Origin: a virus
DNA length: 64,000 nt
IMG/VR virus record: IMGVR_UViG_3300042559_000515
Span: 1-64,000 of that record
Reading direction: 5' to 3' (one strand)
Positions 2,234 to 48,811 of the stretch are shown one piece after another (position 1 is the stretch's first letter; each line of letters opens with the position of its first letter). The notes under the pieces are model-generated. The model was given only the letters and a program-made list of their open reading frames with translations. It made no database searches and had not been told where the DNA came from. A program made the translations under genes and the position numbers.

Positions 2234-3020
2234 GTGAGACCCAATCCAACATCACTGTTAATTCTTCATCACAATGAGCGCACTGAGTTTTCACCTCCTC
2301 CATACGAGGACCAGGTTGTGCCTGGTTAAGTTCTTTTACAATCTTTTTACGGTCAACAAGTGATAACTTCTTTGACCAGTTTTCACGAGTCTCTCGGTCC
2401 ATCTCGGTAATGATGCAACGAGAGATAATATATGTGTTTTGTTCAGCAGTTGTCTTTCCCTTTTTAAGGGCATAACGACTATCACCAGTTGTGGGGTAAT
2501 TGAGGTGAATGCTTTGCCCATTTTTTAGTTGGACAACAACTGGGCTGACAACATCTACATCACCATTTTCAATATTGAAATCGTTATCTAGGTCAATAGT
2601 GACATCATTGCTTCCGTTACAACTTCCGCACCTCAACTGCATTTCACGACCACGACCATATGTGGCACGGATTACACCGAGAAACAATAAGTCTCTATCA
2701 CCAATAATGAGTTCGTCAATAATGTTTTTATTGTTGTTGTCTAAATTGATTGAACCAATAGAAACCACAGAACGCTGAAGAAGGTAATTAAGATAATCAC
2801 CGTATGACAAATCTTCCTTAGCGTCAATTGCCGCCAAGTATTCTTCGTCTTCCCCAGTAAGTTCCCGTACTACGGCTACTTTTTCCCAATCGTTAGCGGT
2901 GGTGTTAAATACACCACGAAGCAACTTCACCTCAGTTGGAGGTGAGTCATCAATTTTTGGAATTGAACCTGCAATTGCAGCGTTGGCTGCTTCAGCCAAG
3001 TTAGATAATGATTCTGACAT
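2220..3020 (-). CDS. Tail assembly chaperone / baseplate hub assembly protein
   Basis: Between tube and tape measure; VRELTGEDEE, GDRDLL and two CxxC pairs. Confidence 0.7.
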   Translation of the reverse strand: MSESLSNLAEAANAAIAGSIPKIDDSPPTEVKLLRGVFNTTANDWEKVAVVRELTGEDEEYLAAIDAKEDLSYGDYLNYLLQRSVVSIGSINLDNNNKNIIDELIIGDRDLLFLGVIRATYGRGREMQLRCGSCNGSNDVTIDLDNDFNIENGDVDVVSPVVVQLKNGQSIHLNYPTTGDSRYALKKGKTTAEQNTYIISRCIITEMDRETRENWSKKLSLVDRKKIVKELNQAQPGPRMEEVKTQCAHCDEELTVMLDWVSLLFG

Positions 3021-3672: not shown

Positions 3673-5298
3673 TTAGAGTGTCTCTGTTGCTGTGTTTTCA
3701 CTTCCAGCAAATTGAGTGATGTTGATGATAATAAATTCAGTAGGTGATTGCAGTGCAACACCAACTTCAATATGGAGTTCTCCATTTTCTACTGCAAATG
3801 GTGGGTTGTTTGATGCGTCACAAGTGATGTAGAAAGCCTCGGTTGCATTCCGTCCCTTGAGACCACCCGAACCCCAGAAATCTGAAAGAAAACGAGAGAT
3901 GCGGGTATGGATATCTGTCCATACACGCTCACCATTTGGTTCAAAGATTGAGAAGTTTGCAATGGATTCAACATTTTCTTTGATGTAGTTAAGAGAACGG
4001 CGTACTGGAACATACTTCGTAATGTCGGTGCGCTTAAGTGTGCGAGCACCATTTGAGATAACTCCACCACCAGGAATGCTCTTCAAGGTGTTGACATGCG
4101 CATCGTAGAGAAGGCCGATTTCGGTCTCAGTAAATGTTGTAGTAAGTCCGTACACATTACGAATGTCATAACCATACCCAGCAGGTGCTTTAGCAACTGT
4201 CCGTTCTTGCTCAACACGGCTGAACAATCCAGCAATTGCACCACCAGGGAATGTGTCACGCAATGATGCGGCTCCGCTACGGGCGGGGTCTGGCATCTTC
4301 AACATTGGGTAGTACACAGCACCATAAGATGACTTGTTGTAGGTGTCGGTCAACCCAGTGATACCAACGGTCAAAGTCTGTGCTGGTGATGGGTCAATGA
4401 TGACAAAACCATTTCCACGGGCTTCAGCGTAAGTGGTAGCCATGTTTACCAGTGTGGCTGAGGTTTGTCCAACCAAGTTGATAAGCAAGGAACCTGGAAC
4501 TAAGTCCAACCTATTCAATGCAGCCAACCAGTCAGCATCGGCAATACTGCCGTCTGTACCATCAGTGTCAGAACCACTTGTTGCATCACCAATCTTGTAG
4601 AGAACAGCAGTTGAGATTGATACGGCTGTATCAAGTCCAGTGATGACATAGGTGGTTCCTGCGGTCAAAGCAGGGTTGACACCAAGAGATGAACCAAACA
4701 CCAAATCAACATAGTTGGAGTAGTTGTTGACAATTGTTGGTGCGTACTGAGGTGAGTCAGGGTCAAGAGAAATTTCTGACCAACGCTCTACCTCTGCACC
4801 ATTGAAATAGATAGCGATAGTGAAGGTAAGTGGCTGACCACCTGCAAGTGTTCCATCACGAGAGCCTTTAAGGAGGTAAACCTTTAATCCTTTTTCTGCG
4901 CTGGATGTTCCTGCGGCTACCCAGTTTGCCCAAGTTCCCTTGCTCTTTGCACGGATTTCAAACAAACCACCAGCGGCAGTGTTTACTGCGCTTCCGTTGA
5001 TAGACCCTGCAACACCAGCACTCTTTGCCCTAGCGGCGGCTGATGCAGTCACACGGTTGATGTATGCGGTGCGACCACCATTTGCAAAGAAATGGTAGAT
5101 GGCATAACCAAGATGTGATGAGTTGGTCAAATCACCATACAATGTCTTGTACTGGTTCCAAGAATCAATACGAGTAGGTACTTCAGGTCCACGAGCAACG
5201 GTGCCGAGGAATGATGTTGGGGTAACGGTAGGTCCAACTGGGGTGGTCGTTGAGAACGGACCTTCGGTGATGTATACACCTGGATAAGAGTTTGCCAT
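3673..5298 (-). CDS. Tail sheath protein
   Basis: YPGVYITE, FFANGG, YYP, KAPAG, GARTL, YVPVRR, FEPN and P.EFI motifs of contractile sheaths. Confidence 0.95.
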   Translation of the reverse strand: MANSYPGVYITEGPFSTTTPVGPTVTPTSFLGTVARGPEVPTRIDSWNQYKTLYGDLTNSSHLGYAIYHFFANGGRTAYINRVTASAAARAKSAGVAGSINGSAVNTAAGGLFEIRAKSKGTWANWVAAGTSSAEKGLKVYLLKGSRDGTLAGGQPLTFTIAIYFNGAEVERWSEISLDPDSPQYAPTIVNNYSNYVDLVFGSSLGVNPALTAGTTYVITGLDTAVSISTAVLYKIGDATSGSDTDGTDGSIADADWLAALNRLDLVPGSLLINLVGQTSATLVNMATTYAEARGNGFVIIDPSPAQTLTVGITGLTDTYNKSSYGAVYYPMLKMPDPARSGAASLRDTFPGGAIAGLFSRVEQERTVAKAPAGYGYDIRNVYGLTTTFTETEIGLLYDAHVNTLKSIPGGGVISNGARTLKRTDITKYVPVRRSLNYIKENVESIANFSIFEPNGERVWTDIHTRISRFLSDFWGSGGLKGRNATEAFYITCDASNNPPFAVENGELHIEVGVALQSPTEFIIINITQFAGSENTATETL

Positions 5299-40219: not shown

Positions 40220-40627
40220 TTAGTCTCGTTCGTGGAGATAGGTCTCATCTTCACGATGCACATGTGCGGGAAGGCGTTCCGACTGCGCCTCTGGGTCGTT
40301 CACAGCCTCTTTGTAGGTCACAGGGACCATCCATGAGGGGTCAATGTCATGTGCGGCGGCAATACGGTGTGCACCATTGACAATACTGGTCTGACCACGG
40401 CTCCTGCCAAGACGAATGGGGTTGACCATCCCCTCTTTACGCAGGCTCGTATGCAGTCCTGACTTATATGCTTCATCGCTTTTGCGATTCCAGAATAATT
40501 CTTCAGAAGGATGACCAGACCTAGTGACATCTTTTGTGGTCATTTCAAGGTCTGAGCCTTCAAGTTCTTCACGGAGCATGCTGGCTGGCATAAAGAGTTG
40601 TTCGTTGAGGTGATGCCAAGTAGCCAT
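40220..40627 (-). CDS. ParB/Sulfiredoxin-like protein
   Basis: GLHTSLRKEGMVNPI...IVNGAHRIAAA; leaderless TATACT. Confidence 0.8.
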   Translation of the reverse strand: MATWHHLNEQLFMPASMLREELEGSDLEMTTKDVTRSGHPSEELFWNRKSDEAYKSGLHTSLRKEGMVNPIRLGRSRGQTSIVNGAHRIAAAHDIDPSWMVPVTYKEAVNDPEAQSERLPAHVHREDETYLHERD

Positions 40628-40740
40628 CTATCCAGTATAGGGCTATCTAGGTGTGCAGGTGATTGTCCCGATTCCTGGTTAGGGCTATGTGGTGCGTGGG
40701 TGGTTTAGGGCTTAGTCGGTCCTACCCCCCACCCTGTCCG

Positions 40741-40770
40741 AGGGTACCACTTAACCATGGGGGGTGTCAA
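40741..40770 (-). promoter_or_regulatory. Sigma70/SigA-type promoter facing the accessory island
   Basis: TTGACA-18 nt-TACCCT with extended -10 TG. Confidence 0.5.
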
Positions 40771-40780
40771 GCCCTGAGCA

Positions 40781-40853
40781 TATGACATTCGTCACATGTG
40801 CCCATCGTCACACCCCCGACCATGTGACCTTCGTCACAGTGACCTTTGTCACA
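40781..40853. promoter_or_regulatory. Four tandem CRP/FNR-type boxes (TGTGA-N6-TCACA)
   Basis: 40781-96, 40797-812, 40823-38 (perfect) and 40838-53. Confidence 0.7.
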
Positions 40854-40875
40854 CCCCGTTTACTTGACATCCAGG

Positions 40876-41218
40876 AAACCCTTACACCGCAAGGGTTTGC
40901 GGGGTACTCATCATAGTTCCCCCCCAATGTCAACCCCCCCTACTCCCCAGTAAACCCTTATGGCATAAGGGAATCCTCTCAGACGCTCTCTAAGCCCCTC
41001 TACCCATGAGTAACCCCCTCTAGGCACCTAGCACCCATTTTGCGCATTTAAACGGCTCTACGGCGATTCTGCATGTTTATGCAGGGCTTCAAATACCCCT
41101 GATTTCATTGACTATTTGAAGATTGAGCCTGTCAAAAACACCAATGAAAACGGGCTTTTTGGTTTTGACATCGCAGATATTCCATACATCCCATGAAACC
41201 CTTGAGCCATAAGGATTT
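40876..41218. repeat. Three copies of palindrome AAACCCTT-N7-AAGGRWWT
   Basis: 40876-98 (perfect), 40952-74 and 41196-218. Confidence 0.75.
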
Positions 41219-41904
41219 GCGCCCATTTGGCACATATTTCATACAGAAAATGATGCATGAACATGCACTACAACTGGGGCTATGGAATCAGGGGCACACA
41301 CAAGGGGGCGAGGGGGGCAGGTATTCCCCACACCTCCGATGCCCAAGGCACAATCCCGATGCCCCAGCACACCCCTGAGCCTCCAGCACCTACTCCCCCC
41401 TCAGACCACACAGAAGAGCCTTCAGAGCGTTCAAATACCCTCTCTGCCACCTGCATACCCTCCCCCTGTCTTCCCCCTATCAGAGGCTCTCCCAGCACGG
41501 TTTGGGCGCCCTTTTCCTCACCCCCCTATCCCTCGGAGCCTTGCCATATATGGGCAAAAAAAGAATCAGAAAAAACATTTGAAAACTATTGACATTCCGA
41601 AATGCCCTCTGCGAGACTGGGGGTGAGGGGCGCTTCGGCGCCTCGCTCTTTGAAAACTGAAGATTCCGCCGTGTTCTTGATGGCTGGGCTTTGCCCATTC
41701 CATAGCGCCCTGTTCCTGTCCTGCCCTAAGTCCTTGGGCATTGCAGTTCAGATTCAGTTGCCTCCACGGTTCATGGAATCCAGTCAGTCCCTTGAAAATT
41801 GAAGATTCTCCGCCAGCAGAGCAAACGCTCGCCACGCTGGTTTACGGTCAGAGCACTTGACCCAGTTCATACGAAGCCCTTGGCAGGGTGAGAATCAATC
41901 AGAT

Positions 41905-42345
41905 ATGCGCCACGGTCGGCAAGGGGTGGCAACCCCTCCCCAGTCAGACCGTGGTTATTGCGAACTAGCAGGTTCTGTGAACCTCCTCGGCTCCGCTAAG
42001 TCCACTCGGTGGATACTGGCGGATGACCCACTGACGCTAAGTCCAACGCTGACACTGCATTGTGTTGACCCCATAGTGGGTCACTTGCTCCAAGGAGCCT
42101 TTGCAGGACAGGCAATGGTAATGCGAATCGGATGGAGGGTTCCGTTCATCAAGGTCACCACTTCGGTGTGTGCGCCAATTACGAACGAGGGCAGGTGTCA
42201 AGGGATTGGCACGACACACAGAACAGAGGCTCTGCGGAGAAGGACTCAACTAGCACCGACTACACGGCACACGGTTCGCAACCCACACCAGTTGACGCTC
42301 AAGGTCAGTTGGAAAGCATCAGCACATGGTGTGGGGTCGCAACGG
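41905..42345 (+). ncRNA. Candidate large structured RNA / leader
   Basis: Dense nested helices, several of 9 bp, with a UUCG loop; lies upstream of the first SD-led gene. Confidence 0.5.
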
Positions 42346-42422
42346 TGTCGGGGGGTTCGCCCCTCGGCTCCGTGCCACTGGCACATCGCAAGGTGTGCTG
42401 GTGGGACGGATAATCCGTTCCC
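42343..42422 (+). ncRNA. Three-hairpin element, copy A
   Basis: 13-bp UUCG hairpin, 13-bp GCAA hairpin and short hairpin, just before SD. Confidence 0.7.
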
Positions 42423-42444
42423 TCTACCAAAGGAGCACCACACA

Positions 42445-42906
42445 ATGGCACTTAATGTTGATTGGGGAAACACCCCCGTTTATAAAGAGTTCCTCGCCAC
42501 CACCCCTGATGGCGACTTCACTGACTCCAACGGCTACCCACGCTTCCCTATCGGTGACCTCATGTTCAGCATGATGATTGTCCAGCAGGGTCGCATCTCT
42601 GAGAAGAACGCCCACAAGGTGTTCGCTCGCCTGTCGCTTTACCTTGAAGCGATGGTCGGTGGTTCATTCTCACGAGTGTGGGATGGCGAGAAGGTCATTG
42701 AAGAACGACTCAGCCCTGAGCACATCAAGCGTGCGATGGGCTTGCGAGTCAATGTGTCCGATGAGTCCGATACCAGTTGGGTGCAGTACTTCTTGCGTCT
42801 TGTAAAGCGTGAGAATGCTGAGCCTGTTGCTGGCATGACCGAATGGACAACGGCGAATATCAAGCGCCACCTTGCGAAGTACGAGGTTGACTACCTCGCC
42901 TCGTAA
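42445..42906 (+). CDS. Hypothetical early protein
   Basis: AAGGAGCACCACACA-ATG; start placed at MALNVD rather than 41857. Confidence 0.8.
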   Translation: MALNVDWGNTPVYKEFLATTPDGDFTDSNGYPRFPIGDLMFSMMIVQQGRISEKNAHKVFARLSLYLEAMVGGSFSRVWDGEKVIEERLSPEHIKRAMGLRVNVSDESDTSWVQYFLRLVKRENAEPVAGMTEWTTANIKRHLAKYEVDYLAS

Positions 42907-42924
42907 GTCACACCCACTACCAAA

Positions 42925-42996
42925 GGCATCAGCGCTTCGGCGCTGGTGTCCTCACTGTGCATCGGCTTCGGTCGGTGCATGGTGAGGACATTGTCC
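42925..42996 (+). ncRNA. Three-hairpin element, copy B
   Basis: 11-bp cUUCGg, 20-bp cUUCGg (GTCCTCAC/GTGAGGAC) and GGAC-ATT-GTCC. Confidence 0.75.
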
Positions 42997-43018
42997 ACAA
43001 CACAAGGAGCACCACACA

Positions 43019-43384
43019 ATGAAAGCAACCGACCCTGAGTTTGCAGGAATGCACCACGATGAAATCTTGAAGCACTTTGCAGGCATCAAGGCAAGCATCA
43101 AGAAAATGGGGGGCGTGACAGTCCCTCCAACACGCCAGCAGGTTGAGTGGGACAGCGTCCCTCTCATTCACGAAGACGCAACAATCGGTCATGTTGTCAA
43201 AGACATCCGAATTGACAGCGTTGGTCATGTCGGCATCGTTGATGATGTGAGCGTCATCACGAAGCGTGACGGACGCACAGCAGTTGTTGTGTCGTTCCGA
43301 TTCGTCAACCACACAACGCTCAACCAATCCCGTACCGACATCAGAACTCGCAAGGTTGAGTTCATCCTCAACAACAACCAATAG
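43019..43384 (+). CDS. Hypothetical early protein
   Basis: Same AAGGAGCACCACACA-ATG leader as 42445. Confidence 0.8.
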   Translation: MKATDPEFAGMHHDEILKHFAGIKASIKKMGGVTVPPTRQQVEWDSVPLIHEDATIGHVVKDIRIDSVGHVGIVDDVSVITKRDGRTAVVVSFRFVNHTTLNQSRTDIRTRKVEFILNNNQ

Positions 43385-44997: not shown

Positions 44998-45016
44998 TCA
45001 CGACAACATCCCCCAA

Positions 45017-45103
45017 GGCATCACAGGCTCCCCCAGCCTGTGGTGTCCTCACAGGACATCGGCACTCCCCCAAGTGTCGGTGTCTTGTGAGGGCATACAG
45101 CCC
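45017..45103 (+). ncRNA. Three-hairpin element, copy C
   Basis: 13-bp, 23-bp (GTCCTCAC/GTGAGGGC) and GGGC-ATACA-GCCC hairpins. Confidence 0.75.
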
Positions 45104-47051: not shown

Positions 47052-47135
47052 GGGGACAGCACGAGCAACTGTTCGTGCCGTCCTCACTATCTATTCGCAA
47101 TGTGTGAGTAGGTAGTGAGGGCGATATCATCGCCC
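47052..47135 (+). ncRNA. Three-hairpin element, copy D
   Basis: ~14-bp, 21-bp (GTCCTCAC/GTGAGGGC) and GGGCGAT-ATC-ATCGCCC hairpins. Confidence 0.75.
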
Positions 47136-48724: not shown

Positions 48725-48811
48725 CACGGGCGTCACGAGGTGCGAGCCTCGTGGCGTGCCGTGGTCATTGTGGGGTCGGGACACTCCGCAGTGACCACGG
48801 GACGCAAGTCC
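48725..48811 (+). ncRNA. Three-hairpin element, copy E
   Basis: GCGA-capped hairpin, 18-bp hairpin and GGAC-GCAA-GTCC. Confidence 0.7.

Follow-up and report, generated by a model that had tools for sequence, protein, structure and literature searches.

A putative mosaic leader bearing rRNA-type boxA at the head of an early operon in an uncultured freshwater phage

Gene context and the start of the leader

The window analysed here is a stretch of 64,000 nucleotides with which an IMG/VR virus record of 83.6 kb begins, and the sequencing runs that contain the stretch of interest are lake and freshwater metagenomes, with no RNA run among those listed. Left of position 40627 the genes run leftward, with a ParB-like protein followed by structural genes that include a collagen-repeat fibre and a terminase (Pfam, PHROGs). 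Right of 42445 they run rightward and encode small uncharacterised proteins and an SNF2 helicase. Between the two gene sets lies a 1.8-kb gap without a credible gene. Its left half carries DNA sites in the form of TGTGAC-N4-GTCACA repeats. Its right half contains positions 41905-42345, which had been flagged from the sequence alone as a candidate highly structured RNA of about 450 nt heading the early operon (hereafter the original prediction). The placement holds: the stretch is non-coding and belongs to the untranslated part with which the rightward, early operon opens.

The first rightward gene (gene 1; Table 1) is preceded by the Shine–Dalgarno (SD) sequence that had been noted before 42445, AAAGGAG upstream of the ATG. 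Its product matched nothing in Pfam or PHROGs. In a search of 5.8 billion proteins, all 13 of its 13 homologues were 153-155 aa long and began at the same methionine; twelve of them are 57-97% identical to it. Relatives of the phage were collected from viral contigs, where gene 1 recovered one close relative (L002, an IMG/VR record 98% identical in gene 1 and the single close relative) and the ParB-like gene recovered two more (L128 and L129), of which L129 has a different layout and was left out of the analysis. Gene 2 as a query found no relatives, metagenome contigs gave only relatives at around 30% identity, and genome contigs gave none. At the DNA level, a blastn search in distant mode found no similarity between 40600-42900 and any of 50,697 phage records.

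Comparison with Rfam, whose families include GOLLD, ROOL, tmRNA, RNase P, introns and riboswitches, gave no family match, either at gathering score or, in any meaningful way, at permissive E-values. Across the whole window the number of gathering-score matches was 0, and the best matches in a permissive scan of 40600-42600 had E ≥0.36, each of them to a model of an animal lncRNA or miRNA. Neither a tRNA nor a tmRNA was found by ARAGORN. In the original prediction the stretch was not recognised as tmRNA, RNase P or an intron, which agrees with these scans.

Table 1. Features of the candidate leader and of the adjoining early genes (positions in the window)
Feature	Position	Strand	Remarks
A-rich tract, UP-element-like (putative function, judged from sequence)	41560-41588	+	kept in L002, similar in L004
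Predicted early promoter	41589-41618	+	TTGACA (41589-41594), 18-nt spacer ending TGc, GAGACT
5'-proximal 7-bp UUCG-loop hairpin, boxB-like position	41627-41644	+	-13.8 kcal/mol; z -2.96
boxA 1, GCTCTTTGAAAACTGAAGATTC	41645-41666	+	directly after the 5' hairpin
Block M1, between the boxA copies	41667-41786	+	near-identical in all variants seen; z -0.88 (+), -0.65 (-)
boxA-like copy 2, GTCCCTTGAAAATTGAAGATTC	41787-41808	+	looser copy, 142 nt past boxA 1
Module M2	41809-41905	+	partly alignable with L002; z -1.13 (+), 0.00 (-)
Module M3, variable	41906-42010	+	replaced in L002; z -1.39 (+), -2.90 (-)
Block M4	42011-42119	+	common to L002 (94%) and X23 contigs; z -0.59
Module M5, variable	42120-42336	+	unalignable with L002; ends in hairpin 42282-42335
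3' hairpin cluster	42342-42421	+	9-bp UUCG, 12-13-bp GCAA and 7-bp hairpins
SD and first early gene (gene 1)	SD 42430-42436; ATG 42445; gene to 42906	+	153 aa, no family
Intergenic double hairpin, R1, best copy	42923-42995	+	85.3 bits; z -5.86 (+) vs -3.19 (-)
Intergenic double hairpin, R1	45015-45100	+	73.8 bits
Intergenic double hairpin, R1	47053-47128	+	71.2 bits
Diverged double hairpin, R1	48727-48809	+	26.5 bits, E 1.6e-5, filters off; not in seed

Upstream of the flagged stretch, the gap holds a predicted promoter. Its TTGACA is kept in the window, L002, L004, L005 and L006, its spacer with TGc and its GAGACT are kept in L002, and an A/T-rich tract upstream of TTGACA is also present in the distant relatives L004-L006. 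The promoter was absent from the list produced by a sigma70 scan because its -10 element is weak, matching at only three of six positions. The hairpin that follows covaries, with L002 having another stem (GCCC/GGGC) under the same UUCG loop. Two naturally occurring C>T substitutions, at 41639 and 41642, leave G.U pairs in place of G-C, which is neutral only for RNA of the plus strand. UUCG-capped hairpins with stems of 7-23 bp cluster on the plus strand of this region, at 41634, 42356, 42936 and 42967.

Directly after the hairpin stands boxA 1. Its positions 41645-41655 match GYTCTTTAANA at 10 of 11 positions, a search pattern used for gamma-proteobacterial boxA in PMC5725501. The element also unites the consensus strings that PMC13753749 gives for E. 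coli and for B. subtilis; according to that paper, B. subtilis rrn operons start with a small hairpin and then at once a boxA-like sequence bound by BsNusB. A small hairpin immediately 5' of boxA and near the predicted transcript start, which is an rrn-type feature, is present here. The 18-mer at 41646-41663 has at least 120 exact genome matches in 596 Gb, against about 17 expected by chance (our estimate). Among the matches listed is the rrn leader of Aurantimonas, 325 nt before the 16S gene by locus coordinates, and a second Aurantimonas locus on the same contig carries the 18-mer in a spacer-like context. Because the 18-mer occurs across many phyla, no host is drawn from boxA. In its 20-mer context, the element is similar to rrn copies of alpha-proteobacteria.

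The window holds two boxA-like matches against 0.02 expected. Variants of the second copy are found in L002 and at the loose end of an X14 contig, and neither this copy nor those of L002 keep fully to the consensus. Three distant relatives, L004, L005 and L006, likewise have a promoter followed by a hairpin and a boxA-like sequence at the same place. No clear boxA was seen in the leader of L128 (about 370 nt), which counts against generality. The original prediction had proposed antitermination as one role for the flagged stretch. A link with antitermination is supported, but the predicted signal lies upstream of that stretch, at 41627-41666 and 41787-41808.

Folding and mosaicism of the flagged stretch

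All of the helices named in the original prediction are present in the sequence, within one base of where they had been placed. The first pairs GCCACGGTC (41909-41917) with GACCGTGGT (41946-41954) and encloses AGGGG-TGGCAA-CCCCT. The pairing stands, but its second arm begins at 41946 and not at 41947. Module M3 consists of this hairpin (41909-41954, with a UGGCAA apical loop) and then two small hairpins. AGGTTC/GAACCT, TCCGC/GCGGA around TCCAC/GTGGA, and CAC-TTCG-GTG are also present, as are the helices formed by TGACCCACT (42024-42032) with AGTGGGTCA (42075-42083) and by CCCACACCA (42282-42290) with TGGTGTGGG (42327-42335). Block M4 holds the TGACCCACT/AGTGGGTCA helix together with a sigma70-like match. 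The 11-nt repeat CGCTAAGTCCA is real, at 41994 and 42035, and a looser third copy lies at 41726.

That the stretch is highly structured was only weakly borne out, since its folding excess falls within the range of coding controls. The 441 nt gave a folding z-score of -2.91 on the plus strand and -5.20 on the minus strand; for two coding stretches of equal length in this operon, taken as controls, the values were +0.56 and -2.67. The plus-strand value is not exceptional because the coding controls reach -2.67. By module, plus-strand z-scores were -1.39 for 41906-42011, -0.59 for 42011-42119, +0.44 for 42120-42269 and -1.66 for 42255-42340, with minus-strand values in the flagged stretch equal or lower. 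Within it, only the hairpin at 41906-41958 stands out, with z -3.59 on the plus and -3.65 on the minus strand. Clearly non-random, strand-specific structure is found just outside the flagged ends, in the 5' hairpin and in 42337-42422, where 86 nt with three hairpins reach z -6.24 (plus) versus -2.53 (minus). DNA palindromes or an antisense RNA would account for the folding of the minus strand no less well than a plus-strand leader does.

Comparison with the close relative gave no common fold. By blastn and MAFFT, the leader can be aligned with that of L002 only at 41497-41800, 42011-42129 (94% identity), 42339-42376 and from 42395 onward, and the sequence between these shared blocks is unrelated and of different lengths. 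About 28% of the flagged stretch has a counterpart in L002, because only 42011-42129 aligns there. No conserved fold with covariation was found in 41905-42345: the single alignable block, at 94% identity to L002, offers no material for covariation.

In Logan contigs of four lake runs, breaks or divergence occur at 41800/41813, 41906, 42011, 42337, 42376 and 42403. In one Logan contig, 42377-42402 is swapped for 110 other letters, and one X23 contig shares with L002 a 19-nt tandem duplication in block M4. An X15 variant is identical over 41643-41933, yet has 20 substitutions packed into 41569-41642. This pattern is recombinational mosaicism between close relatives, because of which the near-identity of shared blocks is not in itself evidence of function. 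The leader also differs in length, from about 820 nt in the window (about 41625-42444) to about 1060 nt in L002. The original prediction of a discrete, conserved and highly structured RNA does not agree with these observations, given that around 72% of the flagged stretch is replaced in L002 and that contigs break at the same junctions. The flagged stretch is probably not a self-standing conserved RNA.

Other searches for internal order in the leader gave null results. No k-mer enrichment in leaders survived correction for the number of k-mers tried; TAAGTC, TGCGAA, GGCAAC and GCAGGTTC had raw P values of 1e-4 to 5e-6 that were lost on correction. An origin of the leader from tandem units was also rejected, as local alignments among its thirds scored no better than shuffles and revealed no internal duplication. 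A long-range complement, 41715-41737 with 42090-42112, lies in two conserved blocks and belongs to a set of 21 inverted pairs that are about equally good.

A covarying double-hairpin family among the early genes

The hairpin cluster that ends the leader resembles pairs of hairpins found further along the operon. These pairs stand in the spacers before later early genes, also in relatives, and form a family, termed R1, with perfect stems of about 22 bp. A covariance model was built from eight copies, with the leader copy left out. With this model, copies outside the seed are recovered in L003-L007, scoring 37-67 bits on the transcribed strand, while antisense shadows reach at most 28 bits. The leader copy (42342-42414) matches this model weakly, at 14.6 bits and a rough E of 0.019 with filters off, and nothing in the rest of 41625-42340 reaches E≤10.

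The family is supported by covariation. In an RNAalifold analysis of ten copies, 21 of 28 pairs show compensatory changes. In an alignment of 17 distinct matches fitted to the R1 model, 96.3% of the cells pair, and at 23 of 29 pairs both partners vary. Its covariation score is 0.690, compared with 0.244 in shuffles (0 of 500 reach the observed value) and at most 0.141 with slid partners. Conserved G.U pairs fix the strand.

None of these hairpins is followed by a T run, and a terminator scan found no terminators among them. By analogy, R1 elements are probably RNA processing or stability sites. An RNase III-like enzyme may cut in the long hairpin, which would leave the small first hairpin as a 3' cap. 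A hairpin of 12-13 bp, as in the leader, is short for RNase III.

Likeness to known leaders and alternative readings

Taken together, these observations make it reasonably likely that 41905-42345 is the variable middle of a boxA-protected, mosaic untranslated leader of about 820 nt, heading the rightward early operon. Host RNA polymerase would start near 41625, from the sigma70-like promoter at 41589-41618, and the nascent RNA would expose the small 5' hairpin, directly afterwards the rrn-type boxA and, further on, the second boxA-like copy. As at rrn operons and in T7, boxA may load NusB-S10 and other Nus factors. The polymerase modified in this way would be expected to resist Rho and pausing and to cross the hairpins between genes as well as the ribosome-free leader, a stretch that Rho would otherwise naturally target. 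The leader body would consist of a chain of local hairpins in modules swapped among related phages at fixed junctions. At its end, a double hairpin like those ahead of several early genes may serve as a processing or stability site, possibly through RNase III-like cleavage.

If this reading is true, an uncultured freshwater phage with DNA unlike that of any catalogued phage borrows the antitermination signal of host ribosomal RNA, and so enables the host polymerase to cross an unusually long ribosome-free early leader. The use of boxA by lytic-type phages would then extend well beyond coliphages. The presence of boxA in phage early leaders is already in print for T7 and the lambdoids. The locus would also be a clean case in which to ask what makes some phages retain around 1 kb of untranslated RNA before their first gene. 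It is mostly this boxA mimicry and the double-hairpin family that give the locus its interest, and not the 441 nt that had been flagged. The double-hairpin family is more solid than the flagged stretch. It covaries, is strand-specific and recurs through the early operons of an entire group of phages; Rfam has no entry for it, and a signal for RNA processing or stability is a good candidate role.

On the best reading, the leader is closest in layout to the early leader of T7. As in that phage, strong hairpins stand ahead of the first early gene and in the spacers between early genes. T7 has RNase III sites in its early region, one of them before gene 0.3, and the strand-specifically folding cluster at 42342-42421, with its weak match to R1, may be a counterpart of such a processing hairpin. 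PMC3709561 describes, for T7, a boxA antitermination element downstream of the early host promoters; the present locus likewise combines an early operon predicted to be read by the host polymerase, boxA after the promoter and an untranslated leader. The two also differ: one promoter is predicted here versus three in T7, the leader is about twice as long and is mosaic between close relatives, and its hairpins belong to a distinct double-hairpin family. To judge from the sequence, what sets this case apart is its one predicted promoter, the lack of a conserved fold and a visibly mosaic leader.

The start of the leader also resembles that of rrn operons, in which a promoter with an A-rich upstream tract, a small 5' hairpin and then directly boxA are followed by a second boxA-like copy further on, as in the 16S-23S spacer, and a long untranslated structured RNA comes next. 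The likeness includes identity of the boxA 18-mer core with the copy in the Aurantimonas rrn leader. In contrast to rrn operons, the leader here is mosaic and is followed by protein genes instead of rRNA, and the MFE fold leaves out the 41715-41737/42090-42112 helix, the candidate for a leader-trailer-like pairing. With the nut sites of lambdoid phages, the locus shares a boxA-type sequence and a hairpin in an early leader, with processive antitermination presumed. However, the hairpin here comes before boxA, as it does in rrn operons, whereas nut sites have boxA then boxB; a lambdoid nut site was rejected on this ground. Pfam and PHROGs scans of neighbouring genes found no N-like protein, although proteins of the N type are easily missed in sequence searches.

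Other explanations of the flagged stretch have to be weighed against this reading. One is that the leader, or its part at about 41810-42340 from the second boxA to the double hairpin, is a functional RNA released by processing, the modules of which could be swapped as decoys, sponges or regulators acting early in infection, for instance against host defence, with boxA enabling the synthesis of a long untranslated RNA. This would fit the length of the leader and its freedom from genes in two related phages, its place right at the front of the early operon, after a boxA, and the double-hairpin element between it and gene 1. The modules that replace it in L002 are hairpin-rich again (z -7.27 at 1340-1470, -3.07 at 1180-1307 and -2.33 at 1045-1190). 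At the end of M5, just before 42337, a helix is kept with different sequences in the window, L002 and one X23 contig, so that the position holds different hairpins. A hairpin with an apical GTGGCAAC loop on differing stems also occurs in three of the four leaders examined (window, L002 and L128, but not L004); however, GTGGCAAC occurs 9 times in the 83.6-kb genome, and the loop motif is therefore a post hoc find. The absence of a common fold, the replacement of most of the flagged stretch in L002, the unremarkable z-scores of the modules in the window, and the lack of an Rfam match or of significant motif enrichment speak against a released functional RNA, as does the presence of only about 210 nt before the first of three small genes in L004-type relatives. 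We consider it unlikely. A more specific proposal, to which a slightly lower probability is given, is that the phage uses a host rRNA-type boxA to make a free RNA of about 0.7 kb as the first product of infection, cut off at the double hairpin, with modules that would be RNA-level weapons or regulators (e.g. decoys for host RNA-binding or defence proteins) and would be swapped like anti-defence genes.

A further possibility is that the palindromes act as DNA, whether as operators or roadblocks for a regulator, as an internal promoter in M4, or as sequences that guide recombination at the junctions. Most of the listed helices are perfect Watson-Crick palindromes and, as described above, the minus strand folds as well or better. 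M4 contains the sigma70-like match CTGACA-17-CATAGT at 42049-42077 and three TGACCC half-sites, and the 19-nt unit that is tandemly duplicated in L002 and X23 is palindromic. Module junctions recur, and the left half of the same intergenic region already carries TGTGAC-N4-GTCACA sites. Nevertheless, promoter-like matches in the region are at chance level (2 versus 1.4 expected), no regulator was identified, the leader elements on either side are strand-specific RNA structures, and the TGACCC sites are not repeated in L004 or L128, which share only 9-mers. A role as DNA seems improbable on this evidence, and the untranslated mosaic leader is preferred.

The original prediction had cautioned that one frame is open throughout the stretch, and this frame is indeed open from 41803 into gene 1; given the base composition here, 196 stop-free codons would arise by chance with a probability of about 5e-4 (our estimate). 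It could belong to small proteins or to a decayed gene, either in this gene-1-frame ORF or in a 93-codon ORF at 42132-42413, and L004-type relatives do have three small genes at the equivalent place. Against this, the same frame is open for only 17 codons before the gene 1 ATG in L002, the gaps in the pairwise alignment of the two leaders, which include ones of 32, 19, 13, 22, 21 and 48 nt, are mostly not divisible by three, and no leader ATG is preceded by an SD on reading the sequence. Of seven leader ORFs searched against Pfam at E≤1, six matched nothing and one matched a zinc ribbon below threshold (15.7 bits versus a cut-off of 22), while none of six matched PHROGs. With the homologues of gene 1 all beginning at the annotated methionine, a protein-coding origin is highly improbable and the flagged stretch is non-coding.

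An 18-nt ribosome-binding-site cassette stands at 42430-42447 and again, identically, at 43004-43021; when segments of the leader were sought elsewhere in the genome, this cassette was recovered together with matches at chance level.

Repeated elements among the early genes

The spacers between early genes carry a double-hairpin RNA family, captured by covariance model R1, in which a 7-bp stem is followed by a stem of about 22 bp with fixed G.U pairs. The family is covarying and strand-specific, is repeated in early-operon spacers across the phage group (see table), and is absent from Rfam.

Repetition also extends to the translation signals of these genes. An 18-nt ribosome-binding cassette, ATG included, is identical ahead of genes 1 and 2 of the window. 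The relative L128, recognised by its ParB-like gene, likewise repeats a ribosome-binding cassette of its own ahead of two genes. The repeated cassette is likely to be a junction for cassette exchange.

Visual comparison suggests that the window's gene 2 also resembles the first early gene of the distant relative L004, with the common stretch KRDGRTAV..F.NHT. If so, early-operon gene order would be shuffled between relatives.

Coordinates of repeated, paired and shared features in the window and in other loci
Feature	Window	Other loci
R1 double hairpin	42923-42995, 45015-45100, 47053-47128, 48727-48809	L003, L004, L005, L007, L128
Ribosome-binding cassette, 18 nt	42430-42447 (gene 1), 43004-43021 (gene 2)	
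Gene 2 and its resembling gene	43019-43384	L004 2703-3143
Hairpin with apical GTGGCAAC	41922-41937	L002 about 1117-1132; L128 about 2803-2822 (minus strand)
Long-range complement	41715-41737, 42090-42112	
TGTGAC-N4-GTCACA-type palindromes, repeated	40779-40857	L004 1925-1972; L128 minus strand near 3888, 3580, 3385, 3130
Unit of ~31 nt around AAACCCTT-N7-AAGGGTTT, three copies	40871-40901, 40947-40977, 41191-41221	
Bacillales 18-mer element		L014 2470-2860; also L009, L015, L020, L031, L035, L039, L064, L072 and many further 18-mer loci

Possible pairing in the leader and predicted operators

Within the untranslated leader that heads the early operon, two blocks kept by all variants are linked by a 23-nt complement (74%; helices of 10 bp and 6 bp on either side of an internal loop). 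Their pairing would enclose the variable modules; the MFE fold does not select it. Hairpins of three leaders (those of the window, L128 and L002, a close relative by gene 1) have apical GTGGCAAC in common, with different stems and a different position relative to M4, the leader block common to the window and L002. As this 8-mer occurs nine times in the genome, its sharing is suggestive only.

The left half of the divergent region carries TGTGAC-N4-GTCACA-type palindromes that are retained in distant relatives, as are the motifs AGTATAGGGCTAT and CTTAACCATGGGGGG, which adjoin the start of the leftward gene. These sites probably serve the divergent promoters as operators. A unit similar to the one around the AAACCCTT-N7-AAGGGTTT palindrome is found in both L004 and L128.

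The boxA-like 18-mer outside the phage group

Among the matches listed, the leader's boxA-like 18-mer stands at the head of a multi-copy element in Bacillales, about 390 nt long, which is present in Paenibacillus, Sporosarcina and the B. cereus group. Here, a promoter is followed by a non-coding stretch of about 265 nt with the boxA-like sequence at its start. Copies are 90-99% alike inside one B. thuringiensis genome and 76-80% alike across genera. No rRNA or tRNA was found within 8 kb of the element, and an Rfam search gave no match to it. Seinonella peptonophila is the source of about 18 of the 18-mer loci among the matches listed.

The same 18-mer follows a hairpin in L013 and L047 (Planctomycetota), L041 (Tepidisphaerales), and L046 and L074 (Verrucomicrobia), with no rRNA inside the 8-kb locus around each. 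Non-rRNA targets under boxA-type control may be common outside Proteobacteria.
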